Below are positions 1-40,826 of a stretch of DNA of 64,000 bases, piece after piece. How positions within the stretch are numbered: the stretch's first letter is position 1; each line of letters begins with the position of its first letter. The DNA comes from Polyangiaceae bacterium (lineage in GTDB: Bacteria > Myxococcota_A > Polyangia > Polyangiales > Polyangiaceae). The position numbers and the translations under genes are program-made. Where the stretch lies: positions 200,466 through 264,465 of the forward strand of contig JADJRH010000002.1 in assembly GCA_016712345.1 (NCBI GenBank), written 5' to 3'. Below the pieces are notes generated by a model. The model saw only the letters and a list, made by a program, of their open reading frames with translations. It was not told the origin of the DNA and made no database searches.

Positions 1-2231
1 GTTGCTTTTCGAGCGAATGCCTGTTCAAAAAAACGCACGAGGTCGTCTCTGACGTTGGCATCAAACCGTTCGGCGGCGAGCACCAACTTGGCATCTGGGT
101 CAATGGCGCTTCCACCCGCAAATGTGGGGCGTGAACCGGCGATCATTTCGTGCAGGGTGACAGCGGCGCTCCAGCGATCGGCGGCAAAATCCCACCCATT
201 TCTACCCTCCGATCGAAGGTAAGGATCGCGGTAGACGGCAGTGCCCACCTGCACATTGGAAATGGGTAGACGCGAAAGCGAAAAGTCAAACAGGGTAAGG
301 TGGTCGGCCTGTTTGGTGGTTGAACCTACCCCCAGGTTGGCCGGTTTGATATCGCGATGAAGCACTTGGTGCTCTTCTAAATGTTCGATCGCTTGCAGCA
401 GGTCGTCGCCGTAGCGACTGGCTTCATCGAGCGAAACAGGCCCAAATCGAGCAATTTTTTGTTGGAGTGTCAACTCGCCGGCGAGGCTGAGCAGCAGACA
501 CTTTCTACCCTTCAGGGTAGGCTGACCGTGAAGCGCCACAATGCGCGCGTGCTTGTCGCGGTCGAGGTTTGAAAGGACAATTGCCTCGTCGGCGATGCGC
601 TCGTCATGGGTAGAGTCGAGCGCGATCTTGAGCGCAAACTCGCGCTCGTCTTTTAGCCTGCGCACGCGCAACACGCGCGCAGTCGCGCCGGTTCCAAGCA
701 GTTTGACCACCTGAAAGTCGCCGAGCCGCGCGTCTTTGGTCGCGGTGAGCGGATCGACCTCTTCAGGAGTGGACGCTTCATCAGGAGCGGTCGCCGCGTC
801 GAGCAAGATCTCCAACCACTCATCCACATCATCGGCTCGATTGACCGGTGCCACATCGGTGGCAAAGGTAAACACCTCGGCGATTTTGGGCGAAACGCCG
901 TCGTCTACCGTTCGGGGATCTAAGTAACGGGATCGTTCGAGCCGGCGATCAAGTTCTTCTGCCCGTTCAGCCGGCGCGCGGCCTGTGAACACAAAATAGG
1001 CGAGCGCTCCCAAGCTGAAAAGATCAGACTGAGTGCTGCGCGAAAGCGGGTTTTCACGCAGTTCGGGCGCTTGGTAAACCGCCCAATCTTCAAGTGCGAG
1101 AGCCGACCAGTGTTGGGTAAAGTCAACCCCTCCACCCGCTCCGAGTTGAAAATTGAAAAGGCGCGTGTCGATCTCGTTTGTATCGGGATGCCTGCGAACC
1201 AGCACCGATTGAGGCGAAACGGCGCCGTGAACAATGCTCTTTCGGTGGCAGTGAGAAAGCGCGCGCCCAACTTGCTCCACCATTGTCAACCGCTCCTCAA
1301 AGGGAAGCGTTGGGTTTTGGCGCATAAACGCGTCGAGCGGAACGCCCCCGGCAAAGTTGCCGAAAATGACAGTGGGACCGAGCGGCGCATCGCTCACATA
1401 ATCTGAAAGCTGGAGAACGTGCGGATGCTCGCGAACATCCCACAAAAGAGTGCTTTCACGTTCGGCCGCGCGACGAAGCTGCATCCGCCGATCCACACTC
1501 GCTTGTTGGGGCACGAGGTACACTCGCGCGCGGGTAGAAAAATTTTTATGACGATGGGTAGCTACGCGGTCTTGATATCCCGCTCCATCCACAAGCAGCT
1601 CCCCCAATTCATAACTGCCGGCCACGGCTCGACCCTTACGAGCGCGAATGCCCAGCGCTGAAAGGGCCTGCGCCACATCGTGCATGGTAGGTCGATCGAT
1701 CTTATCATTGCGATAGTTGTCAGGTGCACCCGGAAACTTATGAAACTGGACCGCCGCGGCGAGGTCTTTGCGAGTGACCACACGGATCATCCCATCGGCT
1801 TTCAGCCGAAGGTCGAGATCCGTGGCGCTCAAAAACACCAATGCCTCCACGTACGGGCATTTGGCCGGGTAGTTCATTTTCGACAAAAGGCGCGATTTAA
1901 GCACCTTTGCCTTGTAATTGCACAAGGACAGCGGCCCATCCATGTACACCGACCGGGCTTGACCCGGCGGTGTTCTATACCACTCGTGGTGATCACCTTC
2001 ATACCTGCCGGGGCCGCTTTTGATTTCGATCAAATACAGGGCTGAATAGCCCATGACCAACAGGTCAACTTCAAGCAGTCTACCCGTGGAAGGTTCAAGC
2101 AGCTCGGTGAGCGCCCACACATGAAAAGGATCGCTGTCGGGCAGAGCGGCGTAGGCAAATTCAAGCGCCTCGCGCTCGTGCGCATAAGGCGACTCTCCAA
2201 CAACGACTTTGCGAGCATTGGAAAGCGGCAT
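1..2231 (-). CDS. NERD-domain protein fused to a tandem pseudokinase plus Ser/Thr kinase. Partial: the C-terminus runs off the left edge.
   Basis: Manual minus-strand translation from ATG at 2231..2229 is uninterrupted down to nt 1. It is absent from the ORF track because it has no in-window stop. The N-terminus has a NERD-like block (DLLVMGYSALYLIEIKSGPG...DHHEW). Domain 1 is kinase-like but degenerate: the beta3 Lys is missing, HRD is HGA (CHRKSIVHGAVSPQSVLV), DFG is NFQ, and APE is retained (WAVYQAPEL...DLFSLGALAYFVFTG). Domain 2 is intact: GTGATARV, FALKIA, HRDIKPANL, DFS, DRWSAAVTLHEMIAG. Confidence 0.8.
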   Translation of the reverse strand, partial: MPLSNARKVVVGESPYAHEREALEFAYAALPDSDPFHVWALTELLEPSTGRLLEVDLLVMGYSALYLIEIKSGPGRYEGDHHEWYRTPPGQARSVYMDGPLSLCNYKAKVLKSRLLSKMNYPAKCPYVEALVFLSATDLDLRLKADGMIRVVTRKDLAAAVQFHKFPGAPDNYRNDKIDRPTMHDVAQALSALGIRARKGRAVAGSYELGELLVDGAGYQDRVATHRHKNFSTRARVYLVPQQASVDRRMQLRRAAERESTLLWDVREHPHVLQLSDYVSDAPLGPTVIFGNFAGGVPLDAFMRQNPTLPFEERLTMVEQVGRALSHCHRKSIVHGAVSPQSVLVRRHPDTNEIDTRLFNFQLGAGGGVDFTQHWSALALEDWAVYQAPELRENPLSRSTQSDLFSLGALAYFVFTGRAPAERAEELDRRLERSRYLDPRTVDDGVSPKIAEVFTFATDVAPVNRADDVDEWLEILLDAATAPDEASTPEEVDPLTATKDARLGDFQVVKLLGTGATARVLRVRRLKDEREFALKIALDSTHDERIADEAIVLSNLDRDKHARIVALHGQPTLKGRKCLLLSLAGELTLQQKIARFGPVSLDEASRYGDDLLQAIEHLEEHQVLHRDIKPANLGVGSTTKQADHLTLFDFSLSRLPISNVQVGTAVYRDPYLRSEGRNGWDFAADRWSAAVTLHEMIAGSRPTFAGGSAIDPDAKLVLAAERFDANVRDDLVRFFEQAFARKA

Positions 2232-2232
2232 G

Positions 2233-3012
2233 TCAGGTGGTGCCTCCCCTCGCAATCCGCGCATCTTCAGGTGCGGCGTCGTCGCTCACCAGGGCGCGTC
2301 CAATGGGAGTTTGACCTTCTACCGCGGTGCGCACGTCCGGGCTCTTGGTAAGATTTAACGCCAATGCCGACAAATAGGCGAGCTGACGATGGGAAGGTGG
2401 AGTGGCAATGACTGTGACTTGTTCGGCCCACGAAAGGCCCCCGTGAGAAGCAAACGCTTCAACAAGGGAAGCCACAGCCGAAGGGCCTGCAACCACCCAA
2501 CGGTCAATGGAAGACAGCGGACCCATGGCAACCGGGGTTAGCTTCACATCCCACGCGGCTGACCACGCTTGAAAAAGGGCCGAAATGCCGGCCGTAGCAG
2601 TAGATTCTACCGACGTTTGCCACAACTCTTCAGCATCTACAGGCAAAAGGCCCGGCCATTTGGCGCCGAACGCGTCGTCCTCGGCAACGGCTTTTTGAGC
2701 AAAGGTCGACCGCGCGCCAAACGCACCCGGCCATTCTGCATCGGCGTCGCGAAGCAAAAGGTCGAGCCGGTCGGCGGTGGTGAGGTCGCCCCGAAAGCCT
2801 GCCCAACGCGCATCTGCATCGGACCCAAAGCGACGACCGGTAGGTTTGCGCGCTTCGGCCCAATACAAGCCTGCGAGCGCAGTGCGGTAGAACGAGCGAA
2901 TTTCGTGGGTGGAAGGGGCTGCCATGGCGCGTTCGGGGCGAAGAATACACGATTCACGGCGTCTCAAGGCGCAGAATCGTCGGGGGGCGTTGCGGGGGGC
3001 GTTGCCCCTCAA
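2233..3012 (-). CDS. Hypothetical protein co-operonic with the NERD-kinase. The likely true start is the internal Met at ~2925 (MAAPSTHEIRSF...).
   Basis: The ORF's TGA stop at 2233-2235 sits 1 nt from the ATG of the downstream NERD-kinase gene. The annotated N-terminal 29 aa is Arg-rich and is translated across a 12-bp tandem repeat, so it is probably non-coding. No domain recognised. Confidence 0.5.
   Translation of the reverse strand: MRGNAPRNAPRRFCALRRRESCILRPERAMAAPSTHEIRSFYRTALAGLYWAEARKPTGRRFGSDADARWAGFRGDLTTADRLDLLLRDADAEWPGAFGARSTFAQKAVAEDDAFGAKWPGLLPVDAEELWQTSVESTATAGISALFQAWSAAWDVKLTPVAMGPLSSIDRWVVAGPSAVASLVEAFASHGGLSWAEQVTVIATPPSHRQLAYLSALALNLTKSPDVRTAVEGQTPIGRALVSDDAAPEDARIARGGTT
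2982..3005. repeat. Perfect 12-bp tandem direct repeat GGGGGGCGTTGC x2 in the promoter region of the hypothetical/NERD-kinase operon.
   Basis: Read directly: cggggggcgttgcggggggcgttgcccc. Confidence 0.7.
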
Positions 3013-3398
3013 GAACGAGTGCCCGTTTGAGGCCCTCTCTCGTGTGAGAGTTCAGCCGGACCAGACCTTCAAAGATCAAGCCACCTAGAGCACCAATCGG
3101 TTTGATTCCGTAACCAAATGGATAGTTCACATGTGTACACAAACAGGCAGAAGCAAGGCAAGAAGGCCAGGCCCGAAGCTGCTACCCGGTGACAGACACC
3201 CAGTTCGGATCGCGTGGAGGGGGGCCCGCGGCCGACTTGCTCGGAGTTGGGGGTTAGGGAGCGAGTGACCTGTGCGCGTTCGAGCGGTGCGGTTTGGGCC
3301 CCATGCGCCACTGTCGGCGGGGAAGGGGCCCCGTCCGCGGGCGCTTGGGAAAAACCGTCACCGCGAGATGTGCACAGGTCAGGAGCGACCCGTGCGGG

Positions 3399-3420
3399 GG
3401 AGGAGGCGCGAGCCTCCTCC
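3399..3420. terminator. GC-rich hairpin (9-bp stem GGAGGAGGC / GCCTCCTCC, loop GCGA) ~95 nt downstream of the minus-strand immunity gene.
   Basis: Inverted repeat seen in sequence. There is no U-tract, so terminator function is uncertain. Confidence 0.3.
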
Positions 3421-3513
3421 ACTGGGAAAAGACTAGAGCACCTGCCGATATTTCTCGGCTTTCTCAAGTCACTAATCTTCTGATTTTACTCACGATTCAA
3501 ACCAATTGGTGTT

Positions 3514-4071
3514 CTAGGGAATGGTCACTTTTTCGAACAAAGCACCTGTGCATCCGGCCTGTTCCAAGCGGTTCTTCAACTCCATAGAAACGATCATCTC
3601 AACGTAAGATCCCCACAATCTGAAACAGTGAACTGGTGGTGGAATCTGACTTGTATCTAAGACTAATTTCGTGATTGACCGGTACTGACCTGCCAGATCA
3701 GCGCGGTGATCACTGGCTGTCCATTTTGTAAATCGAGATTGATTCTCATCCACGCATCGAAGAACCCGAAGGACGTTAACTGCCATCATCTGCGCGGACT
3801 CACCTAGTACAATCGGTAGGATCTGAACGTCGTCCCCGGCGACCTCTCTAAAAATGGTCGCCAACTTAGGTGTTACAATCGGGACTCCGAAACTTGTCAG
3901 CGAAAAATCTAACCTGGCTCCCCGGTGATGTATCGGAGCTGACAATGGGGTTGTCAAATGCAAAGCAATTCCGCCCTTCAGATCAGGTTCGGCACCGTCG
4001 GAAAGAGTAACTTCGCCGATGTGCCATCGGTTCGAACTTCGCATGTCGTCGAAAACTTGAAAGTACATCAT
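3514..4071 (-). CDS. Putative immunity protein for the orphan Rhs toxin tip.
   Basis: The start ATGATG overlaps the TGA of the upstream toxin ORF in an ATGATGA arrangement. The 185-aa gene has markedly lower GC (~48%) than its surroundings. No named family recognised. Confidence 0.6.
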   Translation of the reverse strand: MMYFQVFDDMRSSNRWHIGEVTLSDGAEPDLKGGIALHLTTPLSAPIHHRGARLDFSLTSFGVPIVTPKLATIFREVAGDDVQILPIVLGESAQMMAVNVLRVLRCVDENQSRFTKWTASDHRADLAGQYRSITKLVLDTSQIPPPVHCFRLWGSYVEMIVSMELKNRLEQAGCTGALFEKVTIP

Positions 4072-5552
4072 GGTTGAGTCAGTAATTTGTTAAGATCTGA
4101 ACCAGGCGTACTTAGCTCTTTGCTCATTGCGTCGAGTTCAGATCGAAAGGCTTCCGCGTACCTATCGCCCGAAAGCCCTCGGGTTGCGCGTTCCAAACGC
4201 TGGGACACTTCGCGATGATATGCTTCCGAATGGGGCCCGCGGTGTCCTGGGACTCGCACTTTATTAATTGCGTCATCGAGAGTCATTCCGGCCTTTTCGG
4301 CCATTCTTTCGAACCGCTGCGTCCACGGACCACCGTTGGATGACGAAACACGGTTCTTGTTTGTCATGATATGGTGCACCTGTCCATCCCCACCTTTTGG
4401 CGCCGACATCCATGCGTTAATCCCCGCCAAAATGTTTCCCGCACCACCCACAACGCCGACGGTAGAAACGGCAATTGCCGGCACTCCAACTGCCGCACCT
4501 ACCCCGGTCACGGTCGCCGCCCCGCCGAAGATCTCCCCACCAAGCGACGTGGCCGTGGTGTACAAACCGCCGCCAATCATCCCAAGCGCCTTGCCGCGCT
4601 CAAAGTACACCGAACGGCGCTTTACCAAGCCTTCCGCAAGGGCCGCTTCTTCGGCCACCCCTGCACCGGGTACAATGCCCAATAGTGCCCCACTAAACCC
4701 GCCCGCGATTGTCTGAAGAACGGGATGATTATACCACGGCTCGTCTTCCGCTTCCTCGTCAGGTTCGGCGGTTATGTCTTCCGATCCCGTGCTGTCCACG
4801 TCGGTTTTCGGCTCACCTACCCCGTGTTCCGCTTCTTTCTTAGGTTTGTCTTCCGTCGGCGGCCCGGCCTTTGATCCCGGTACAGAAATCTCCACATACC
4901 CACTCGGGTCCACGGGTAGGGAAGGCTCGCGCTTAGGTTCGCCGTCAAATCCGCTTGGGTCAGTATAGGTCAGCGGATTATTGAAAACGTAACTGTAGGG
5001 GTTCCACGCCTGACTGAATGTCCAATTCTGAATGATGGGATCAGTGCTCAGAAACCTACCCAACTTGGGATCAAACATTCGCCCTTTCATGTTGACTAAA
5101 CCGATCTCCCCATCGTCTTCATGCCCCGTAAATCCAAGCGAAATCGAATCTGGAAAGCTCGCAGGTATAGGGGCGCCCCACTCGGGATTTCTCCGCCGGC
5201 CGAAGGCGTCGTAACTGCGCCGCTCGGTGACCTTCCCATCGGCGTCTGTGAGTACGTCCACCGATCCCAAATGATCCGCGTGCACATACGTTGTGCCTGG
5301 TTGATTACCTCCAAGCGTGACAATCGCGATCACGCGTTCAGGCGAGTGCACATAAAATCGCTCGGTGAGCGCGTTCGCGGCGTCTTTGACACGTTCGTAC
5401 AGGTCGGCGAAATAAAGCGTTTCGTGCGTTGCGGTTAGATCGAGAGTGAACCGCGCTTGCCTGCGCAAAACGGGCTTGCCGTGCTTTGGCTCGCCTTCCT
5501 CGGGATGGTCAGAAACCAACGCGGCACCTAACAAGGTTGCCAAGCCGCCCAA
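4068..5552 (-). CDS. Orphan Rhs C-terminal cassette: an RHS repeat-associated core fused to an alternative C-terminal toxin domain (possibly HNH/AHH-like nuclease).
   Basis: Residues ~40-260 are near-identical to the main Rhs gene's core (THETLYFADLYE...YDAFGRRRNPEWG...GHEDDGEIGLVNMKGRMFDPKLGRFLSTDPI...NPYSYVFNNPLTYTDPSGF). After that it diverges into a different tip containing ...QVHHIMTNKN...GHRGPHSEAYH.... It has its own unique 40-aa N-terminus. Confidence 0.8.
   Translation of the reverse strand: MGGLATLLGAALVSDHPEEGEPKHGKPVLRRQARFTLDLTATHETLYFADLYERVKDAANALTERFYVHSPERVIAIVTLGGNQPGTTYVHADHLGSVDVLTDADGKVTERRSYDAFGRRRNPEWGAPIPASFPDSISLGFTGHEDDGEIGLVNMKGRMFDPKLGRFLSTDPIIQNWTFSQAWNPYSYVFNNPLTYTDPSGFDGEPKREPSLPVDPSGYVEISVPGSKAGPPTEDKPKKEAEHGVGEPKTDVDSTGSEDITAEPDEEAEDEPWYNHPVLQTIAGGFSGALLGIVPGAGVAEEAALAEGLVKRRSVYFERGKALGMIGGGLYTTATSLGGEIFGGAATVTGVGAAVGVPAIAVSTVGVVGGAGNILAGINAWMSAPKGGDGQVHHIMTNKNRVSSSNGGPWTQRFERMAEKAGMTLDDAINKVRVPGHRGPHSEAYHREVSQRLERATRGLSGDRYAEAFRSELDAMSKELSTPGSDLNKLLTQP
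4925..5436. repeat. Inverted copy (~88% nt identity) of the Rhs core segment 24448-24975.
   Basis: Reverse-complement of 5341-5460 aligns base-for-base with 24451-24530 with few mismatches. Protein-level identity is ~95%. Confidence 0.75.
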
Positions 5553-5735
5553 AAATGCGCGTGGGTGATTTTGGTGGGTAGACGACCCGCGAAGATTGTG
5601 CCCTTTTCATGATGGGCGCCTCGTTCTGGGGGCGTTCACGCTTTGTGGCGAGCCAGTCAACCGTTTCGCGTTGCGCGAAGGCCACCCAAGGGCAATGATG
5701 GGTAGGTTGCGGGGGATCTACCCATGGTTGAGGGG

Positions 5736-7772
5736 CTACTTCGGCTCCGGCGGATCGTAGATTTTCTTTACGTCGGCACCGCCCACGAACGCGTACGAGC
5801 CGGCGCTTCCATACCCATAAGCGACAATTCCAAAGGGCTTGTCACCTGACAGGTTGTGGGCGCCTTCTTGGAGCGGGCAGCGACGGGTTTCATACTCCAC
5901 ACCGGCGAGGTTGCCGGCCGGTTGGGTAGAACATCCACCCGGGGAGGTGCCGTCAATGGAGACGTTGGTGCCCACTTCGGCAACGATGACGACCCAATTT
6001 TGGTTCCACGAGCCGGGGGTTAGAATAACATATTCTGTGCGGTATTGGTCAACCGGTGGGAAGACGGTGAGGGAAGGATCGCCGATGTACGCACCGTCGC
6101 AGTATTGATTGCTGACAAGGATCTGACCAATCATGACGGGGGTGTCGGAGGTGACAACCACGTCGCCCTGGGTCCAGGTGGTTTTGACTTCACCCGGTTG
6201 GAGGGTGAATTGGTTGAATGGGGCGGGGAGGGTAGTGGTGACGTTGGTGACTTCGGCGGCGCCGACAAACCGGAGGATGTCAGGTTCTTTAAAGCCGCCC
6301 GTGGAACGCACGGGGCTGCGGGGAATGACGTAGTTTTTACCGACCGATTCCACCGGGAAGAGTTGGTCTTCAAGGTGGTCAAGGCAGCAGGTGTTGTCGG
6401 TTGTCCAACCGGGTGGGGTGGGAATGTCCACAACGCCGCCGGGAGCACCTGTGCTTTCTACCCCGGAGAATACGGCCACCGGCGCGTTGGCCGTGACAAG
6501 GGTACCTGACAAGTCGGCAATGGTTTTTGGATCGTCTTGGAATGTGCCGTCGTCCGTTTCAAGGTTGAGCACGTCAAACGGGCCAATGGTAAGACTGATG
6601 TCGCCGCCGGCTGGTGTGGCTGCAACGGGGGGATTTCCCTTGATTCGCCAGCTGGGTTTTACTTTGACAACGGTGTTGGGGGTGGTGCCGACAATGGTGA
6701 CATACGAGCGATCGAGAATGTTGAACCCGCCGAATTTGACGGGGTGGCCGGCGGGCCAGCCGATTACGCGGTAATAGGTTCCAAGTGCGTTGGTGGGTAG
6801 AAGAAGCGACGCATCGTTGGAATACGCGTTTTCAAAAACGTTGAATTGGTAGACAACGATGGGCGCGCTTGACTTAATGCGGAATGCGCGCGAGGAGAGG
6901 CAGGTTCCAGGGGAGGCGTAGTCGTTGGGTTGGACGCCGCAGTCAAGTTCACGCGTGGGTAGAACAAGGGCGTACAAGGCCCCGGGGTTGACCTCGGCGT
7001 CGGCGACTTTTGAAAGCTGGAGGGGTTGCCCGGGAGCGGCTTCGTTGATCTCAATGGAGACAACGGCTTTGGTTTGGCCGGCGTTGGAAAGCGCGACACC
7101 CCACGGTGCACTGGCCGGATCGTTGAAGCCGTCTTGTTGGTCAAGGTCAACCGCCCAAAATTCACACCCAACGTTGGAAGGTTGACCTTCTGCCACAACA
7201 CATGCGCTGATGCAGGCGCCGTTGGAACACGTTAAGCCGAGGGCCGGATCGCAGGTTTCTACCGGGGTGGTGCCGATTGTACCTTGGTCGGTGCACTGGT
7301 AGACATCATTGCCGAGGCAGGTTTTTCCACCGGGGTAACAGTCCACACAACCGAGCTTGGGAGCGCACGCTTTGGGGCATGTTTCAGGTGTGCCCGGCGT
7401 GCCGTCGCTGTTGCATGGGATGTAGGAGCCGGCGTTGCAAATGTCGCAAACATCGGAGTTGCCTCCGATGCCGCCGTTGCCGCCGTTGTTGGATGAGGTG
7501 GACGCCCCCGCGCCGCCGCCGCCTGTGGTGTTATTTGGAGCGGCGGAACAACCGAATTGAGATGGCAAAAGCGCCAAGAATAAAAGGGAAGAAATGGGTA
7601 GTAGGGTACGGCTCGAACGCATGAGGGTAGAGTGCCCGAGTGCGCGTGAGAAGTCAGTACGAAACGACCGACGCAGTGCGGTAACTGAGACGTCTCGCAA
7701 CGACCTGAAACGCCTCGCGACGACCTGACATGTTGTACTAAACACGGAGGCACGGACTACACGGAGGTTCAC
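5736..7772 (-). CDS. Secreted cysteine-rich repeat protein, probably a lipoprotein. Likely start MRSSRTLLP at ~7622.
   Basis: Signal peptide/lipobox-like N-terminus (LLFLALLPSQFGC). Multiple CxxCxxGxY...C repeats of the myxobacterial cysteine-rich type, then a large beta-rich region. Confidence 0.7.
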   Translation of the reverse strand: MNLRVVRASVFSTTCQVVARRFRSLRDVSVTALRRSFRTDFSRALGHSTLMRSSRTLLPISSLLFLALLPSQFGCSAAPNNTTGGGGAGASTSSNNGGNGGIGGNSDVCDICNAGSYIPCNSDGTPGTPETCPKACAPKLGCVDCYPGGKTCLGNDVYQCTDQGTIGTTPVETCDPALGLTCSNGACISACVVAEGQPSNVGCEFWAVDLDQQDGFNDPASAPWGVALSNAGQTKAVVSIEINEAAPGQPLQLSKVADAEVNPGALYALVLPTRELDCGVQPNDYASPGTCLSSRAFRIKSSAPIVVYQFNVFENAYSNDASLLLPTNALGTYYRVIGWPAGHPVKFGGFNILDRSYVTIVGTTPNTVVKVKPSWRIKGNPPVAATPAGGDISLTIGPFDVLNLETDDGTFQDDPKTIADLSGTLVTANAPVAVFSGVESTGAPGGVVDIPTPPGWTTDNTCCLDHLEDQLFPVESVGKNYVIPRSPVRSTGGFKEPDILRFVGAAEVTNVTTTLPAPFNQFTLQPGEVKTTWTQGDVVVTSDTPVMIGQILVSNQYCDGAYIGDPSLTVFPPVDQYRTEYVILTPGSWNQNWVVIVAEVGTNVSIDGTSPGGCSTQPAGNLAGVEYETRRCPLQEGAHNLSGDKPFGIVAYGYGSAGSYAFVGGADVKKIYDPPEPK

Positions 7773-7890
7773 GGAGATTTTCTATATTTCGGGCTGCAAT
7801 GGATGTCAGAAACGTTGTTTGGAACCGCGTTCTGCGAGCCGATTGCAGCCCAACAAACAAAGAAACTCCGTGTTCCTCCGTGATTCCGTG
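7742..7890. repeat. Nested palindromic repeat element, copy A: CACGGAG x3-4 / T-rich / GGGCTGCAATGG / central hairpin / GATTGCAGCC / A-rich / CTCCGTG x3.
   Basis: Seen in sequence. A second copy with the same architecture lies at ~55146-55318. Confidence 0.7.
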
Positions 7891-7961
7891 TTGAAATGGA
7901 CGGTTCAGTTGGAGAAACGCACCAGGTTCTTGCCGGGTGGCGTCAGTTACCCAGAAGGCCC

Positions 7962-8669
7962 TTAATTGGAAGTGGCGGCGGTTTCAGAAGGAGGAGGCGA
8001 GGATGGGGAGGTGGAAGGTGTATTCAAAGCGTCATTGGAGATTTCCCAAACGAGTTGAGTGTTGCCCTGCGCTCCGGCGAAGCGAATACCAAACCACTTG
8101 GCTTTTGTGGAAATGGTGGGGCGACCCTCGGCTGTGACGCGGGGAAAACGAATGCGAAACGCCTGTCGAAACACGTTATTGTAGGGGAAATAAGTGCGTT
8201 CAATGGCGTTTGGTTTTTTAATGAGTTGAATTTCTTCAGGCGCTGTTTCGTTGCCTGTGTCGTCGATGAGCCGAACGATCCATGCGCTGTCGGGGCGGGT
8301 CAGATCGTTGTAGCGGCGCTCGCCGCCGTAGATGGCCACGAAAAACTGGTGGCGGCGTTTGGTTTCATCGAGCGCTTTTTCAAGGAGTTTTTTGCGCTCA
8401 TCAATGGTGAGGCGGTAGTCCTGAACGTAGCGGACTGTGTACGCCCAGCGAAAATCCCACGATTCAAACGTGGCTGTCGCTGTGAGGAAGTTGTCGAGTT
8501 CGCTCAGCGAAAACAGGCGTTCGGTGCGGGTCCAATGGCGAAGCACCGATTCATAATCGGTGGCGACATATTCACGCGGGCCTTCTGCGAGCGATACCAA
8601 CTGCGGTGCGCAACCGCACGCAGCAAATGCTGACACGGCGACGGTAAGCGCGGTGGAGAGGCGAAACAC
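7962..8669 (-). CDS. Hypothetical lipoprotein.
   Basis: N-terminal signal with lipobox (VSAFAACGC). No domain recognised. Confidence 0.55.
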   Translation of the reverse strand: MFRLSTALTVAVSAFAACGCAPQLVSLAEGPREYVATDYESVLRHWTRTERLFSLSELDNFLTATATFESWDFRWAYTVRYVQDYRLTIDERKKLLEKALDETKRRHQFFVAIYGGERRYNDLTRPDSAWIVRLIDDTGNETAPEEIQLIKKPNAIERTYFPYNNVFRQAFRIRFPRVTAEGRPTISTKAKWFGIRFAGAQGNTQLVWEISNDALNTPSTSPSSPPPSETAATSN

Positions 8670-8681
8670 GGCCCGACCTTA

Positions 8682-9431
8682 TCACGTGTCGTGGCCGGCT
8701 CGTTCAGCGAGTCGCACGTCGGTTTCAAGCCCGGTGAGGGCGGCTGTGTAACCGTCGCGTGCCGCTGTGCGCATTTCCATGAGAAGAGCGATTCGATGCA
8801 GGCGCGTTTCGGCGAGATCCGCCCGCGCCATCGCGTCGCGAACCACTTGAACTTGGCCTTGCCTGAGTTTGGTGGCGAGCGATCCAACGGCGATTGCCGC
8901 GATGAGGAGCACAACGAGCCCGATTCCGAGGAGGAGCGCAACGGCAAGTCCGCTGCCTTCACCTGCGAAAAGCGCTCGAAACGCGGCGATTGCGGCGAGC
9001 ACAACTCCGCCGATGAGGAGCAAAAGTGAACTGATGACACCGAGTCTTTCAGTCCACGCGGCGCGCGCGAGTTGGCGCATGGCGACGTTGCGCCAAAAGT
9101 CGGCTTCGCTGTCGAGGCGTTTGGCGAGCGATGCGAGAGCGTCGTCGGTGGACAGCTCCGGCAAGTCGGCTTGGTGAAGCAACTCAGCGGGGATGCGCGC
9201 TTCATCTCCGGCATCGGCGCTGAGCGCATCACCCACTTTTCCAAGGCCCGAACGAACGCGATTGCCAACGGCGGTCGCCACCGGCTTCACACCGGCGGCG
9301 GCCTTTTCTCCAAGTTCGGCGGCCGTGGAGCGCGCGCCTTGGAGCGCTTTTTTGGCATTGTGTACACTTGATTTTTCGTCGTCCGAGTCGGCGATTGGTG
9401 ACTTGCCCCAAGTGCTTTGTTTTTCGCTCAT
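8682..9431 (-). CDS. Hypothetical membrane protein.
   Basis: Long hydrophobic segments (LLLLIGGVVLAAIAAF..., LLLGIGLVVLLIAAIAVG). No domain recognised. Confidence 0.5.
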   Translation of the reverse strand: MSEKQSTWGKSPIADSDDEKSSVHNAKKALQGARSTAAELGEKAAAGVKPVATAVGNRVRSGLGKVGDALSADAGDEARIPAELLHQADLPELSTDDALASLAKRLDSEADFWRNVAMRQLARAAWTERLGVISSLLLLIGGVVLAAIAAFRALFAGEGSGLAVALLLGIGLVVLLIAAIAVGSLATKLRQGQVQVVRDAMARADLAETRLHRIALLMEMRTAARDGYTAALTGLETDVRLAERAGHDT

Positions 9432-18047: not shown

Positions 18048-19010
18048 TTACTTTGGCTCTTCGGTGGGGGCGCACGTGGAAACGCCGGCGCCAACGATGT
18101 CAAACCCCACGTTGGTATTGATGGGGGTGGTGATTTGGGAGGTGGGCTCGTATTTGTAAATGCCTGTGCCGCTCATGATGTAAAACGAACCTCCCCAAAA
18201 GGCGAAGGCCCACGACAGGCCGCTTGGAATTTGAGTGAGGTCAGAATAGGTAATGACCTTTGCGTCGGCCTTGTTGATCTCCGCGAGCCGAATGGGGACA
18301 TCTTGAAAGTACCCAAACAGCCGCGCGTCGCCCGTGCCTGTCAGTTCTGCCGCTTTGCCCGCCAAAACGTCGTAGTCGGCAATAGGAGTAAGCGTCAGGG
18401 TGGTTTGATCGATGGTTGCGAGGCCGGACGCTCCGGGTTGGTTATACGCACCCGAAACGTACAACGTTTCCATGTCAGACCCCGCCGCGTCGGAAACAAA
18501 TCCCATTCCAAACGTGCAAAATCCGGACTGGCAGGGTAGAAACCCGGTGGGTGTGCAGTTGAGCGTTTTGGTATCTACGTGGTAGATTACGCCGTTTGCA
18601 AAGAGTACCCACGCTCTTCCTTTTCTATCCACCGACATAGAAAACGTGGTGTTGAATTCTTCTCCCGGGCAGTTGAGTGTGCCCAGCACCGTGAGATCCT
18701 GAGTTTGCGGAGCAAAGCGAGCAAACTGCTTATCCTGACCCAATATGTACACACTGCCTTTGGTGTCGTTGTCGCAGTCGCCCGGGCCCGCCGCGCCGGT
18801 TCCAGAACTTACCGACAGGTCAATTCCACCGTCGCCGCCTTTTCCGGTGCTCATACTTCCCCCCAACCCGCCCGTGGGGAGACTTCCCGCCGAACCGCCG
18901 CTCCCGCCGACAGTTGGATCACCGGTCGCCGCCGTGCGCCCCGCGCTGCACGAAAGCGCACCAAAAACAGCCACAACAGTGCATACCGCCCGCAGATTAA
19001 GGTGAAGCAT
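18048..19010 (-). CDS. Hypothetical lipoprotein.
   Basis: Signal with lipobox (ALSCS) and a Gly/Ser-rich linker. No domain recognised. Confidence 0.5.
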   Translation of the reverse strand: MLHLNLRAVCTVVAVFGALSCSAGRTAATGDPTVGGSGGSAGSLPTGGLGGSMSTGKGGDGGIDLSVSSGTGAAGPGDCDNDTKGSVYILGQDKQFARFAPQTQDLTVLGTLNCPGEEFNTTFSMSVDRKGRAWVLFANGVIYHVDTKTLNCTPTGFLPCQSGFCTFGMGFVSDAAGSDMETLYVSGAYNQPGASGLATIDQTTLTLTPIADYDVLAGKAAELTGTGDARLFGYFQDVPIRLAEINKADAKVITYSDLTQIPSGLSWAFAFWGGSFYIMSGTGIYKYEPTSQITTPINTNVGFDIVGAGVSTCAPTEEPK

Positions 19011-19173
19011 GGGGGGATGTTAATCCCAAAAACAAGCGATTGGAAATGGAGTATTTCTGCTGACTACACTCCTGGGTAACTGCGTAACAAATAAAGCACA
19101 CACCCCGCATGCGAGGATCTGCACTGAACATCCGACACGGTTAACAACATCTCCAAAACGAAAGGATGCGCCA

Positions 19174-22100
19174 ATGAACGTGCGAACGTCGTTTCCTTTA
19201 GGCAGCAATCAACGCGCGGCGAACAAGCCACCCTTGCGGCTGACTTGGTTCGCGCCGTGGGTGTTTCTGATCATCCTTTCAATCACACAAGGCGCCTGCA
19301 CCTGCATCACAAGCGAGGCGCCGCCCCCGCGCGAAATCGTCGCATGTGTACCCCAACACGAAACGCGCGCTACCAAACTTCCAACCTCCCGCGCAAGTGA
19401 AACCGCCGCCGCCGGTAGCCTGCAAGGGACATTCTCTGTCACCCCTACCGGTGAAGCTTCTTTTGTCGTTCCTATACCCACGCCACCGGGTAGAGCCGGG
19501 ATAGAGCCACGGGTAGCCCTCGCCTATAACAGCGCCGAGGGCGACGGTGTAGCGGGTCAAGGCTTTTCGCTCTCGGGTTCATCGGCGATCACGCGTTGCC
19601 CTAAGAACATGGCCCAAGATGGGGAGATCTGCGCCGTCCGGTATGACGCCGAGGATAAACTCTGTTTGGATGGTCAACCGCTTGTACAAGTCGCCGAAGA
19701 AACCGGACAACTGGAATACCGGACCTTACCCGACACCTTTGTGAAAGTGGTAGGTCATGCGCCGATCGCAGGCGTTCCGCAATGGTTTGAAGTGTTCGCT
19801 CCGAATGGCGTGATCACCGAGTATGGTAGAAGCGCCTCAACAAGACCGCGCGGACCCAACAATTCTACCCGCGCTTGGTTAGCCGCCAAAACCCACGACG
19901 GCCGCGGCAATGCGTTGATCTACGGGTATTGTTTCGCCAATGCCGAAGAGTACACCGCTGAGTACGCATTGGATGAAATTCGGTATACCCAATTTGACGG
20001 GACACCCGCCCTTGAACCGACACGGGCCGTCAAGTTTGTGTACGCGCAACGCAAGCCCGACCAAACGAGGCTTTCTTTTTCGCATGGAATGGTCGTTCAA
20101 CGCTCTTTACAACTCAACGAGATCCAAATGGTCGGCCCCGGTGAAGAATTGGTCACATGGGTGGACCTGGAGTACACAAAGAGTGAAGCCACCGGCCGCA
20201 CCTTACTCACAAAAATGGAAGAATGCGCTGCGGATGGAGTCTGTAAACCCGTTACGCTTTTTTCATACTCCACCCATGAAAAAGGCTTTATCGATCAATC
20301 TACCGAACTCGATTCGCCCACGTCCCGCAAGGCAAGCCCAATGCTTGTGGACATGGACGGCGATGGGCTTGACGATGTGTTAATCCCTGACACGCATCCC
20401 GCCCTTTCTACCCCTGCAAACCCGATCACAGAATGGCGGCTTTTCCACAATGGCACCTTGCCCGGTGAAAGTGTCACCTTTTCAGATCTGACCATTCCTT
20501 ACGTTCAAGATGACGTGTTTGTGGCCGATCCCAGCGGTCCCGCCGACCCTACCCAACTACAGCCCGAACTTGGAACGGTGCTTGATTACAACCAAGACGG
20601 CCGAAAAGATATCCTTCTCCATGACATCTACCAACAGGGGGCAACATGGAAGATTTTGATCGCCAAACCCGCCCCTCAAGCCGGACCCAACACCCCCACG
20701 TTTGAGATGGTAGATACAGGGATCGCTCGCCCCTTTGGCATCGGCGCCCAACCTGTACCACCTGCGTTGTCTACCAAAAACGGCTCCATGCACTTGGCCG
20801 ACGTCGACGGCAATCGCGTGGCCGACTTGATCCAATGCACCGATCACAGTGACTCGCTCACCGGTGACCCTTCTAAACCTGAATGGAAGGTGCACCGATG
20901 GTTGCCCGCGCACGGGGGTATACCTCTTGGATTTGACCCGGAAGGAGAAGTGATCGAAGCGCTCGAATTATACCGATGCGACGTCGACCTGAAAACGGTT
21001 GACATCGACGGAGACGGAAAAACAAATCTTCTTGTCGTGCCGCTTGAAGTGGCAGGTGATGGATCTGAAATTCAGGGCGTAAATTACGAAGCGCTTTCCC
21101 GCAACGAAAACGGCACGTGGGAAATTCGCGAAACAAACCTAACCATTCCCGCCCCAGGTGGACGCGTTGTATTTCTCGATGTGAACGGGGATGGTCTACC
21201 CGATGCAGTAGAGTCAGGTTTTTCGAACGGCGGGCTTTATACACTCCTCAACACCGGCAACGGCTTTGCACCCTCGCAGCTCAGTTTGGATGGTGGCGGT
21301 TACGGCGGGCAGGATGCGCTTTTCCGCTTTGCAACCCCAATCGACGCCAACGGAGACGGCAGGCAAGATCTTTTGGTGCCCATGTTCGCCGATGGACTCG
21401 GCGCCAGTGGTGAACCGCCCGAGTGGGTGTTTCTCATCGCACAACCGGGCATCCAATCGACGGGCACGTTCACCATCGAACCATCGGGCATTCCCTTTAA
21501 GCCGCTTTTGGGTGAAGCGGTCACTCTCGCCGATCCTCACGGGCCGCGCATCGGCGATCTGAACGGCGATGGAGCTTCGGATGTTGCCATTTGGTTGAGT
21601 GGCAAGCTCCACATTTTCGAAAATCAAGCGCGCGATCAAGACCTGTTGATCGGTGTACACCAAGGAACCAACCCGCATGATCCTACCGATCCTGAATATG
21701 TGCCCGACGTGGCCATTTCGTATGGCCATCTGACAGACTCTTCTATCACGACCAACACCGATCCAGATGCTTTGTCCAATGAGAGCGCGCTCTACCTTTC
21801 GCAATGGGACAAGGCCAATGGGTGCACCTACCCGCGACGGTGCAGCGTTGGCGCGCGCCGCGTTGTTTCGGAGTATCAGACGTTCGACGGGGTAGATGCT
21901 GGGCGCCGGTATAGCTTGCGGTACCGCGATGGACGGATATTCGTTGCACAGGGCTTTTTTGGGGTTCGGTGCGCGGTTTCTGACCGACCTCGACACCGGA
22001 GCGATCACCGCTGACTTTTTTGATAACCAGTCGTTTGACGCCACGTTTCAGACCTACCCATTTGCAAAGGTCCGATCGGCCCAATGGCGATCTACACCCG

Positions 22101-39800: not shown

Positions 39801-40826
39801 TTCTCGAAGCTCATTGTTTCGACCGACAAATGCGGCGCCGAAATTGGTGGAGGATGCGAGTGAGCCCCGCTGCTCTCCCAATATCCTCAAGATGTCATTT
39901 CCGTCGGCGCGTTCTGCCGGATCGATGGACAAAAGCGCGACCGTCAGTGCATCGAGATCCGCGGGAACATTGGGGACCACAGCACTCGGCGCAAGTGGCA
40001 CGGCGCGCTGTTTGTGAGTGGCCACGGCGTCGGCCGACACTTCAAACGGAAGTACACCCGTGAGTGACAGGTGCAACATGACTCCCACGGAGTACCAATC
40101 CGCGGACGTGCTGAGCGCCTTTCCGGCGGCCTGTTCAGGAGCCATGAAGTGCGCAGTTCCAACGACGTGTTGTTCTTCTTCGCCCAACGTGTCGTGCGCC
40201 TCGGTGACAAGTCCAAAGTCCAAAATGACAACGCGGCCTTCAGGCGTCACAAGGACGTTGGAAGGTTTGATATCGCGATGGATTCGACCCGTTGCGTGCA
40301 GCGCCAAGAGCCCGCGAGCCAAACCTGCCAATGCGGGTCGAAGCTTGTTTTCATCCAATTGCCCGGTCATCGCGGCGGGCAAACACTCTTGAGTCGACGG
40401 CGGGCGAGGGCGGATTTCTGTGTCGCGATCCGCTTGATCCAAAGGTACATCCGAAGTGCGCGCCGAGATGCCACGCACGTAGTCTACGAACGGTTGCCCC
40501 TCCACGAGTTCCATCGTGAAAAAGAGTTGACCGCTTTCTTCAAGCAGTTCACCCAGCCGCACCAGATTGGGGTGGGCCAAATCAACGAGTGATCGAAACT
40601 CGTTTTTGAAGCGAATGAGGCCGGCGGCATCCAGGCTTCGCAACGTTTTGATCGCGACTTTTGTGCGATGGGCGCGGTCGTACGCCTCGTAAACAACGCC
40701 CATTCCACCCCAACCGAGGAGCTTTCGCGCCTCAAAGCGGGTGCCGGGGAGGGCGGTAACAAGCTGTGACGGCGCGCTCATCTCAGCCGCTTGCACCATT
40801 GCACGGGGCCCCGTCGAAGTCGACAA
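36861..40826 (-). CDS. Multidomain Ser/Thr protein kinase with AAA/NB-ARC-like ATPase and TPR-like repeats (STAND-like, PknK-type).
   Basis: Kinase motifs GWGGMGVV, VAIKTL, HRDIKPSN, DFG and APE are present. They are followed by a P-loop (GESGMGKTT) and a long helical repeat region. Confidence 0.85.
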   Translation of the reverse strand: MSTSTGPRAMVQAAEMSAPSQLVTALPGTRFEARKLLGWGGMGVVYEAYDRAHRTKVAIKTLRSLDAAGLIRFKNEFRSLVDLAHPNLVRLGELLEESGQLFFTMELVEGQPFVDYVRGISARTSDVPLDQADRDTEIRPRPPSTQECLPAAMTGQLDENKLRPALAGLARGLLALHATGRIHRDIKPSNVLVTPEGRVVILDFGLVTEAHDTLGEEEQHVVGTAHFMAPEQAAGKALSTSADWYSVGVMLHLSLTGVLPFEVSADAVATHKQRAVPLAPSAVVPNVPADLDALTVALLSIDPAERADGNDILRILGEQRGSLASSTNFGAAFVGRNNELREIESAYWASLDGRARALFIEGESGMGKTTLGRRFLDKIADEALVFSARCYERESVPYKACDGLVDRLGTHLAKLPPASSSAILPKDIELLAAVFPVLAVSDPVAKRRTPLPASGAGSHLGDEDLVLDLLDEDTRPRVSPGFLSTSPIAIPPEIEPAELRARVFTAMRRLLHNLAEQKPLVIAIDDLQWADADSLAMLSEILRPDDADEIEADGKPAPLFLLASVQSDEAHSTPIDLALPASLVRRMKLSQLPTDEARALVDRLLRALAGDTPLDRIDVNALLAEGGGHPLFLDALVRYRLQNTADTSPLRLDDALWARVENLSSRARRALIALSVAGKPLSRRVLEHALSADGEEMERLLAELRAGQFSRAWGSPENETLEPYHERLRETVLSHLQAEEKRALHGHLAIALETVGDAELEDLSVHWLGAGDMARAAQYAAKAGDQAAQAFAFDSAARLYALAVSLLPAPATERASLFVRLGDAHSNGGRGREAALAYESAAALYPENTAVELYRRAAENLLRSGYIDEGMEHLRTVLAAVDIDFPLTPATTLAALLFRRAELRLRGLSFEEKTLTRISPADLRRVDVCWSASLGLGMVDALRGAYFQVRCLLFALSAGDAYRVSRALSMETAFVATAGPSARPRVNELLDAAERAATRSAHPHALALVPGVSGVALFLEGRFSEAIALLQTSENALRTKCVGVHWEAASILTFALWCQFFTGDFRALAADAPGAIREAEERGDRYLATNLCSGFTNIIWLIADEPQTAIAMAERSYGPWSRAGTHLQHFHDLVARCHSALYAGDGASAFAAIETGWKALDDSMSFRIQLVRIFCEYLRGATALSTSMTAAAPTPYFQAAVRASKRIEGERVSWALPLALTLRAGAKWREGQSQSAVLGLLEDAHRMAKSAGLMGYATAIFRAIGVVRGDEAGRAATAEADSEFIRRGVINPPRFARTLVPGFEPQSLLPRDAQSVPPPQN

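Follow-up and report, generated by a model that had tools for sequence, protein, structure and literature searches.

A probable BREX type 2 PglW kinase/nuclease gene in a Polyangiaceae genome and the conserved 230-aa gene upstream of it

PglW of Streptomyces coelicolor contains a NERD domain (residues 12–130), an atypical kinase domain that lacks an ATP site (residues 195–490), and a Hanks-type kinase (Hoskisson et al., 2015; PMC4365076). The protein autophosphorylates, and the substitution K677A, which removes the catalytic-loop lysine, abolishes both autophosphorylation and phage resistance (PMC4365076). Over-expressed PglW is toxic, as seen in Escherichia coli (PMC4365076). For its NERD domain, a role as suicidal back-up effector has been suggested (PMC4365076; PMC12839542). 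The sections of PMC12839542 that deal with this protein describe a NERD-type restriction endonuclease domain followed by an inactive pseudokinase and an active serine/threonine/tyrosine kinase, and report that the combination of NERD, inactive kinase, and active kinase recurs in MAD6, some MkoA, and a subset of DndF proteins. According to the census in the main text of that paper, 1039 of 1309 taxa with BREX type 2 are actinomycetes; this main text does not mention Myxococcota (PMC12839542). Here we describe a 64,000-nucleotide stretch of a Polyangiaceae (Myxococcota) genome (GenBank assembly GCA_016712345.1, contig JADJRH010000002.1, positions 200,466 to 264,465 of the forward strand), hereafter the window. 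At its left edge lies an open reading frame (ORF) that is best explained, with high confidence, as the part of pglW that encodes the N-terminal half of the protein, with its enzymatic domains; PglW is a kinase/nuclease found specifically in BREX type 2 (Pgl) anti-phage systems. This ORF and its domains are as follows (window positions; residues, aa, counted from the first methionine).

1..2231, minus strand: pglW, N-terminal 743 codons (about half of ~1450 aa), open past position 1 and matching the PADLOC and NCBIfam PglW profiles
1830..2156, minus strand: NERD (PD-(D/E)xK-type nuclease-related) domain, aa 26–134, with D56, E69, and K71 (Pfam PF08378)
762..1619, minus strand: degenerate kinase-like (pseudokinase) domain, about aa 205–490, from kinase-model matches at aa 200–490 (PADLOC, NCBIfam) and motif alignment
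3..734, minus strand: Hanks-type Ser/Thr kinase domain with the motifs of an active enzyme, aa 500–743, its C-lobe cut by the window edge (Pfam Pkinase and motifs)

Translation of the minus strand from position 2231 to position 1 gave 743 codons with no stop, beginning with an ATG at 2231–2229 and remaining open at the window edge. The ORF list omits pglW because the frame runs off this edge, as had been pointed out in an earlier reading made from the letters alone (the sequence-only reading). The ATG at 2231–2229 is supported as the start codon because PglW homologs align from residues 1–3. When the PADLOC models were run, a check proposed in that reading, the PglW profile PDLC02512 matched with E = 6.3e-217 (721.5 bits), and residues 6–742 were aligned collinearly with positions 4–754 of the 1403 in the profile. 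Similarly, the NCBIfam equivalog BREX_PglW (NF033442) matched residues 11–742 at its positions 6–751 of 1391 (E = 2.5e-201, 671.7 bits). Given an E-value of 6e-217 to a curated profile, the similarity is far beyond chance, and these matches to curated PglW profiles therefore identify the ORF as the N-terminal half of PglW.

The domain composition agrees with this assignment. The profile searches for NERD and Pkinase that the sequence-only reading had proposed both returned matches. For NERD, PF08378 matched aa 26–134 with E = 1.5e-7 and 32.4 bits, above the gathering cutoff of 22.1, and the domain named in the sequence-only reading is thus borne out. Pfam Pkinase matched two stretches, the better of which spans aa 506–704 on profile positions 1–198 of 263 (E = 7.8e-39). 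The residue readout also agrees with the earlier description of a first kinase-like domain that has lost the beta3 Lys, the HRD Asp, and the DFG Asp, followed by an intact HRDIKPAN/DFS kinase. In domain 1, the beta3 strand reads RARVYLV without the Lys, HRD is replaced by H335-G336-A337, and DFG is replaced by N360-F361-Q362, while the alphaC Glu (E259) and the APE motif (388–390) are retained. Domain 2 retains K535, E549, H625-R626-D627-I-K629-P-A-N632, and D649-F-S651.

These motifs were compared among 12 PglW proteins from Myxococcota, Polaromonas, and Streptomyces. The NERD residues D56, E69, and K71 (D...E-x-K) are kept in all 12, across three phyla. At the beta3 position of domain 1, R-x-R-[VIT]-Y is found in 11 of the 12 proteins and Lys in none; the HRD position reads H-R-A in the Polaromonas and Streptomyces proteins; and the DFG position reads N/D-[FW]-Q in 11 of 12, the remaining one (P0046) having D-W-A. 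The alphaC Glu and APE of domain 1 are kept across the aligned proteins, and the catalytic motifs of domain 2 are kept in all those compared. The alignment indicates that the degeneration of domain 1 is real but ancestral to the PglW family, rather than a local event, and that the catalytic residues of kinase 2 and of the NERD domain are intact. The window protein thus shares with the S. coelicolor protein the succession of a NERD domain, a kinase-like domain without an ATP site, and a Hanks kinase, and with S. coelicolor and other BREX type 2 PglW proteins the NERD D...ExK, the HRA/HGA and N/D-x-Q of domain 1, and the ALK, HRDxKPxN, and DFS of domain 2.

The sequence-only reading had regarded tandem pseudokinase-kinase proteins as rare in bacteria. 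This does not hold, as NERD followed by pseudokinase and kinase is the defining N-terminal half of published PglW (PMC4365076; described also in the PglW sections of PMC12839542). The claims of rarity and novelty are unsupported because the order NERD-pseudokinase-kinase has already been published and is shared by other defense families. Such sharing raises the question of whether the ORF might belong to one of those families, namely MADS (MAD6), Mokosh (MkoA-like), or the DndF subset, instead of BREX type 2. These proteins have the same N-terminal NERD, inactive kinase, and active kinase, and the MAD6, MkoA, and PD-T4-6 models do match the ORF (264.1 bits for NCBIfam MADS6, 158 bits for PADLOC mad6, and 77–90 bits for MkoA). 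However, the PglW scores (721.5 and 671.7 bits) are three to five times higher than those of the rival families and the match is collinear from profile position 4. The MADS6 score (NF047741) lies below its cutoff of 460 and is exceeded 2.5-fold by that of PglW. Moreover, the C-terminal modules and partner genes of MAD6, MkoA, and the DndF subset differ, and the orthologs of the window protein at 47–76% identity sit in pglW-pglX-pglY operons. Membership in one of these other families is therefore extremely improbable.

The operon context of the relatives supports assignment to PglW. The closest genomes searched are Myxococcota, with PglW proteins 47–74% identical to that of the window. Five loci with the pair and the following genes are listed here.

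L005, Enhygromyxa salina DSM 15201: ~230-aa gene, PglW, PglX, then PglY/BrxC
L006, a metagenome-assembled genome (MAG): ~230-aa gene, PglW, PglX; no PglY-sized ORF after PglX
L008, Sorangium sp. So ce590 (CP150346.1): ~230-aa gene, PglW, PglX, then a DarT-Macro pair
L009, a metagenomic contig: ~230-aa gene, PglW, PglX, then PglY/BrxC
L010, a metagenomic contig: ~230-aa gene, PglW, PglX, a 321-aa gene, and an unannotated 1337-aa gene

All five share the order ~230-aa gene, PglW (1437–1473 aa), PglX. In L005, PglX scored 1143 bits on BREX_2_MTaseX and PglY scored 1124 bits on PADLOC BrxC-PglY. The PglX proteins co-encoded in the relatives match the full PglX profile (positions 4–1188 of 1189) and keep DPxCGSG and NPPY. 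The PglW of the relatives matches its profile to position 1398 of 1403 and contains PF03118. More distant plasmid homologs, at 31–35% identity, are annotated as "BREX system serine/threonine kinase PglW" and adjoin genes annotated as "BREX-2 system adenine-specific DNA-methyltransferase PglX". In L008, a DarT (PF14487) and Macro-domain pair resembling a DarTG toxin-antitoxin/defense module (18776–20456) stands directly after pglX within the BREX-2 operon. On plasmid pPNAP01 of Polaromonas naphthalenivorans (L011, 11783–22527), an ATPase gene lies between pglW and pglX, and on a Streptomyces plasmid (L012, 16529–19943) this interval encodes two hypothetical proteins with an AAA ATPase between them.

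Several points weigh against the assignment to PglW or limit it. The 671.7 bits of the window half-protein fall below the NF033442 cutoff of 990 bits. This cutoff is set for the whole protein, and full-length relatives, which cover the model end to end, scored 1033.4, 1019.2, and 967.8 bits; 990 bits is out of reach because only half of PglW is in the window. Indeed, the window holds only 53% of the protein. By the family definition, the C-terminal half of PglW comprises an RNA polymerase alpha-CTD-like domain, three winged helix-turn-helix modules, and an inactive STAND (iSTAND) domain, and the gene is accompanied by pglX, pglY, and pglZ, together with brxD and brxHI. Here the C-terminal half and pglX/Y/Z, brxD, and brxHI would lie beyond position 1. 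No BREX component was found with profile models among the other large ORFs of the 64-kb window, and the remainder of the system would have to be encoded past its left edge. In addition, the flanks of the relatives compared end short of pglZ, brxD, and brxHI.

A further point against the assignment, as far as a functional gene is concerned, comes from the databases. The PglW of the source MAG is missing from a set of 5.8 billion proteins (best match 76% identity), in which the products of genes on either side are present (MBK8255149, 152, 154, and 159). Because PglW is missing while its neighbors are present, the gene may be disrupted past the window; this pattern is expected from pseudogene annotation in the deposit, and it suggests that the deposited record carries such an annotation. 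The 743 codons would then be what is left, at the 5' end, of a BREX-2 locus that no longer functions, with pglW decaying or disrupted as a pseudogene or as an assembly-frameshifted copy. Broken or split pglW frames in relatives point in the same direction. In L002 (131–2626) the frame breaks at about aa 831, and in L093 (13782–14333) and L094 (13716–14366) a shortened PglW of 1234–1286 aa is followed by a separate ORF of 183–216 aa, which is possibly a split C-terminal iSTAND. L003 (1944–8147) has an in-frame read-through of ~630 codons after the end of the PglW profile match. These irregularities could be assembly errors, decay, or real variants. Against disruption, no stop interrupts the 743 codons and the catalytic and structural motifs are all conserved; as far as the window reaches, pglW is intact and fully conserved. 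Moreover, absence from a database is indirect evidence, and frameshifts in MAGs are often sequencing errors. Disruption is possible but, in our judgment, rather unlikely.

As N-terminal half of PglW, the window protein is a further member of a known family, whose architecture and defense role are already represented in the literature, PADLOC, and NCBIfam. Its orthologs sit in pglW-pglX-pglY operons, as expected for BREX type 2. There are also differences from known PglW proteins. First, it is only ~31% identical to the PglW of the Streptomyces plasmid and 34–35% identical to proteobacterial ones. Second, it falls in a Myxococcota-centered clade, whereas known type 2 systems are mostly actinobacterial in the census of PMC12839542 (main text). 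Third, a conserved 230-aa gene stands before pglW, which neither the Streptomyces locus (L012) nor the Polaromonas locus (L011) has. The features of this upstream gene are as follows.

2233..2925, minus strand: conserved 230-aa gene, first of the operon and tightly coupled to pglW; the predicted fold joins a helical bundle to half a Rossmann fold and is reminiscent of the N-terminal part of methyltransferases of the PglX/HsdM type
2243..2247, minus strand: GGAGG, putative Shine-Dalgarno-like motif for pglW, read from the sequence, 11 nt before the ATG and still within the upstream gene, near its 3' end

The stop codon of the upstream gene, TGA at 2235–2233, is followed by the single base 2232 and the pglW ATG at 2231. 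Starting from the ATG at 2925, its 230-aa product is identical to the deposited hypothetical protein MBK8255149.1 (IPK82_21115) of a Polyangiaceae MAG, encoded on a 738-kb contig. The GGAGG at 2243–2247 presumably serves pglW as a Shine-Dalgarno sequence. Between the operon start and the next gene upstream, which encodes Imm11, there is a 588-bp gap (2926–3513) without a convincing ORF that presumably holds the operon promoter. A sigma-70 promoter scan of 2150–3600 predicted none, and the four terminator-like matches in the same interval are within chance (2.0 +/- 1.6 expected).

Homologs of the 230-aa protein are numerous and unannotated. The set of 5.8 billion proteins contains 426 of them, all labeled "hypothetical", and a search of 1.84 billion proteins (E <= 0.001) returned 335 representatives at 50% identity, nearly all of them standalone proteins of about 225–255 aa. 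Among 80 metagenomic loci encoding a family member, a PglW N-terminus starts directly downstream on the same strand in 66; of the other 14, 11 have <=57 bp of contig left and three are only partial matches to the 230-aa gene. The order 230-aa gene then pglW was also found in all genome and long-contig loci that have upstream sequence. The distance from stop to start is <=11 nt in 60 of 73 loci, including 17 overlaps, and 16 loci have the same 1-nt spacer as the window. The coupling to the upstream gene described in the sequence-only reading is thus borne out. Moreover, the identities of the 230-aa protein and of PglW to their window copies co-vary (Pearson 0.80, Spearman 0.69, n = 48). These patterns predict that the 230-aa gene is co-transcribed with pglW, and the two are probably coupled in translation as well. 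The distribution also indicates that the gene is co-inherited with this PglW clade.

By contrast, the 230-aa gene is absent upstream of pglW on the Streptomyces plasmid, and on Polaromonas pPNAP01 a small gene for a 73-aa regulator (PNAP_RS21310) takes its place. Like the 230-aa gene in some loci, this gene overlaps the pglW start with its end; however, it is annotated as a helix-turn-helix regulator and shows no similarity to the 230-aa family. Its absence from these two loci marks the 230-aa gene as specific to one clade, in which most of the named members are Myxococcota. The part of PMC12839542 that lists type-2-specific components gives PglW, BrxHI, and BrxD, and mentions no 230-aa gene there. 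In summary of the linkage data, we consider it likely that this is a conserved, unannotated, PglW-coupled gene, and it is the only part of the locus without a ready explanation.

The sequence of the 230-aa protein gave no match in searches of Pfam, PADLOC, NCBIfam, PHROGs, and PDB sequence profiles. Likewise, 55 family members had no Pfam match at E <= 1, including N6_Mtase, HsdM_N, and MmeI_Mtase. An AlphaFold2 model built from a 55-sequence alignment has a pLDDT of 92.3 and a pTM of 0.90, and predicts a helical N-terminal part (aa 6–125) and a beta-alpha-beta part of about four strands (aa 143–230). In Foldseek searches against the PDB and a viral library, HsdM and N6-adenine methyltransferases ranked first, although weakly (best E about 0.02). 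When the family profile was compared by hhalign with the N-termini of the co-encoded PglX proteins, no similarity was found (probability 0.17). The idea of a PglX paralog, like the methyltransferase resemblance as a whole, therefore stays at the fold level. Neither FxGxG/DPxxGxG (motif I, binding of S-adenosylmethionine, SAM) nor NPPY (catalytic motif IV, (D/N)PP(Y/F/W)) was found in the family alignment. The nearest look-alikes are the conserved "AGPSA" and "ATPPxHRQ"; these segments come after strands one and two, respectively, and could be decayed versions of motifs I and IV. Conservation is strongest in the helical half, at E24, R31, R32, F33, D38, W41, R53, R59, D60, W65, P66, R72, D83, F86, E99, and W102.

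The 230-aa protein is not a split-off N-terminus of PglX, as the co-encoded PglX is complete with DPxCGSG and NPPY; the 230-aa gene is therefore an extra module. It is not a domain that also occurs fused within larger proteins, as the exhaustive profile search gave almost only standalone proteins of ~225–255 aa. Nor is it recognizable by motif or profile as a gamma-class N6-adenine DNA methyltransferase, as FxGxG, NPPY, and Pfam matches are lacking. Compared with PglX (BrxX), HsdM, and MmeI, it is far shorter, at 230 aa with a predicted half Rossmann fold of about four strands, and has no SAM loop, no NPPY, and no sequence-profile similarity to the co-encoded PglX or to any methyltransferase family of Pfam.

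The 230-aa protein is most likely a non-catalytic accessory subunit. The N-terminal bundle of PglX has been argued, in the passages of PMC12839542 on this protein, to be an interface for other BREX proteins, and by analogy the 230-aa protein probably binds PglW or another Pgl protein through a similar interface. It is possible that it acts as a regulator of the toxic PglW or like an antitoxin towards it, or as a decoy that mimics PglX. A tentative extension, which we think has only a small chance of being correct in full, is that the gene is an undescribed seventh component of a Myxococcota-centered BREX type 2 variant. Its product would be a catalytically inactive "half-methyltransferase" imitating the interface formed by the N-terminal part of PglX. 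It would either regulate PglW, so that the toxic NERD/kinase is restrained until a phage infects, or act as a decoy and signal when anti-BREX proteins of a phage attack PglX. The specific mechanism of mimicry or regulation is speculative.

The genes further upstream of the operon are as follows.

3514-4071, minus strand: Imm11 immunity gene (Pfam)
4068-5552, minus strand: 494-aa ORF ending in an AHH (HNH/EndoVII) nuclease domain, with only remnants of RHS repeats (Pfam)

The Imm11 gene overlaps the end of the RHS-AHH ORF by 4 nt, and the two genes (3514–5552) form a polymorphic-toxin cassette of the kind used between bacteria. The long RHS shell is missing, and the pair resembles an RHS C-terminal toxin-immunity cassette that has been orphaned or displaced. 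The sequence-only reading took this toxin/immunity island as support for a defense role. However, the genes upstream of the operon differ in every relative locus examined, and the RHS-AHH/Imm11 cassette is conserved in none of them. A link between PglW and the cassette was rejected because of these differences. Upstream of the L005 operon (1963–9264) are genes for an MkoA-like helicase, a DrmC/MkoB-like PLD protein, and an RtcR-like CARF-AAA regulator; upstream of the L006 operon (2713–9126) is a complete ZacABC set; the L008 operon is preceded by a SNF2-type helicase gene, as is that of L094 (5366–8272); and the L009 operon is preceded by genes for an AAA_13/SMC ATPase and an EVE/ASCH protein. 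PglW sits in variable and often defense-rich regions (defense-island contexts), and the toxin neighbor in the window is incidental.

The same comparison bears on the proposal that the 230-aa gene and the NERD-pseudokinase-kinase gene form a novel, self-contained two-gene abortive-infection module, analogous to the tandem-kinase immune receptors of plants and linked to the toxin/immunity island. The tight coupling of both genes is compatible with such a module, as are the toxicity of over-expressed PglW and the proposal of NERD as a suicidal back-up effector (PMC4365076; the relevant sections of PMC12839542). However, the ORF is half of a ~1450-aa PglW with an architecture already described, pglX comes next after the pair wherever the sequence of a relative extends far enough, and the RHS-AHH/Imm11 neighbor is not conserved. 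A self-contained module is thus highly improbable. Of the earlier reading, the domain calls, the defense role, and the coupling to the upstream gene stand; the self-contained module does not, as the protein belongs to a multi-gene BREX system.

Elsewhere in the window, two minus-strand genes have kinase or ATPase products with matches to defense models. The N-terminal ~330 aa of a 1321-aa protein (36861–40826) match the PD-T4-6 and mad6 kinase models (E about 1e-55); this product is probably an ordinary myxobacterial Ser/Thr kinase and no defense gene. A 770-aa AAA+-type ATPase (57910–60222) matches the candidate defense models PDC-M37B (E = 2e-37) and DolB (E = 1e-28).

A working model can be proposed for the PglW of this locus. 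The C-terminal DNA-binding/iSTAND half, which lies off the window, would sense infection or unmodified DNA. The active kinase would then phosphorylate itself or partner Pgl proteins, thereby switching the PglX/PglZ machinery, and it is probably under the allosteric control of the adjacent pseudokinase. The NERD nuclease may serve as a back-up effector. The 230-aa protein, with its predicted fold like that of the PglX/HsdM N-terminus and without SAM-binding or NPPY motifs, would be an accessory partner of PglW or another Pgl protein.

Re-identification of PglW adds little by itself, as its architecture and defense role were already known. With this locus and its relatives, BREX type 2 is documented for Myxococcota, Polyangiaceae among them; the main text of the census (PMC12839542) does not mention this phylum. 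The loci also bring to light a compact, unannotated 230-aa family that is essentially always coupled to this PglW clade and whose predicted fold recalls the N-terminal part of PglX. A dedicated partner protein offers a concrete handle for experiments on the mechanism of type 2 BREX and on the regulation and toxicity of PglW. The 230-aa partner gene may mark out a variant of BREX type 2 that is particular to this clade.

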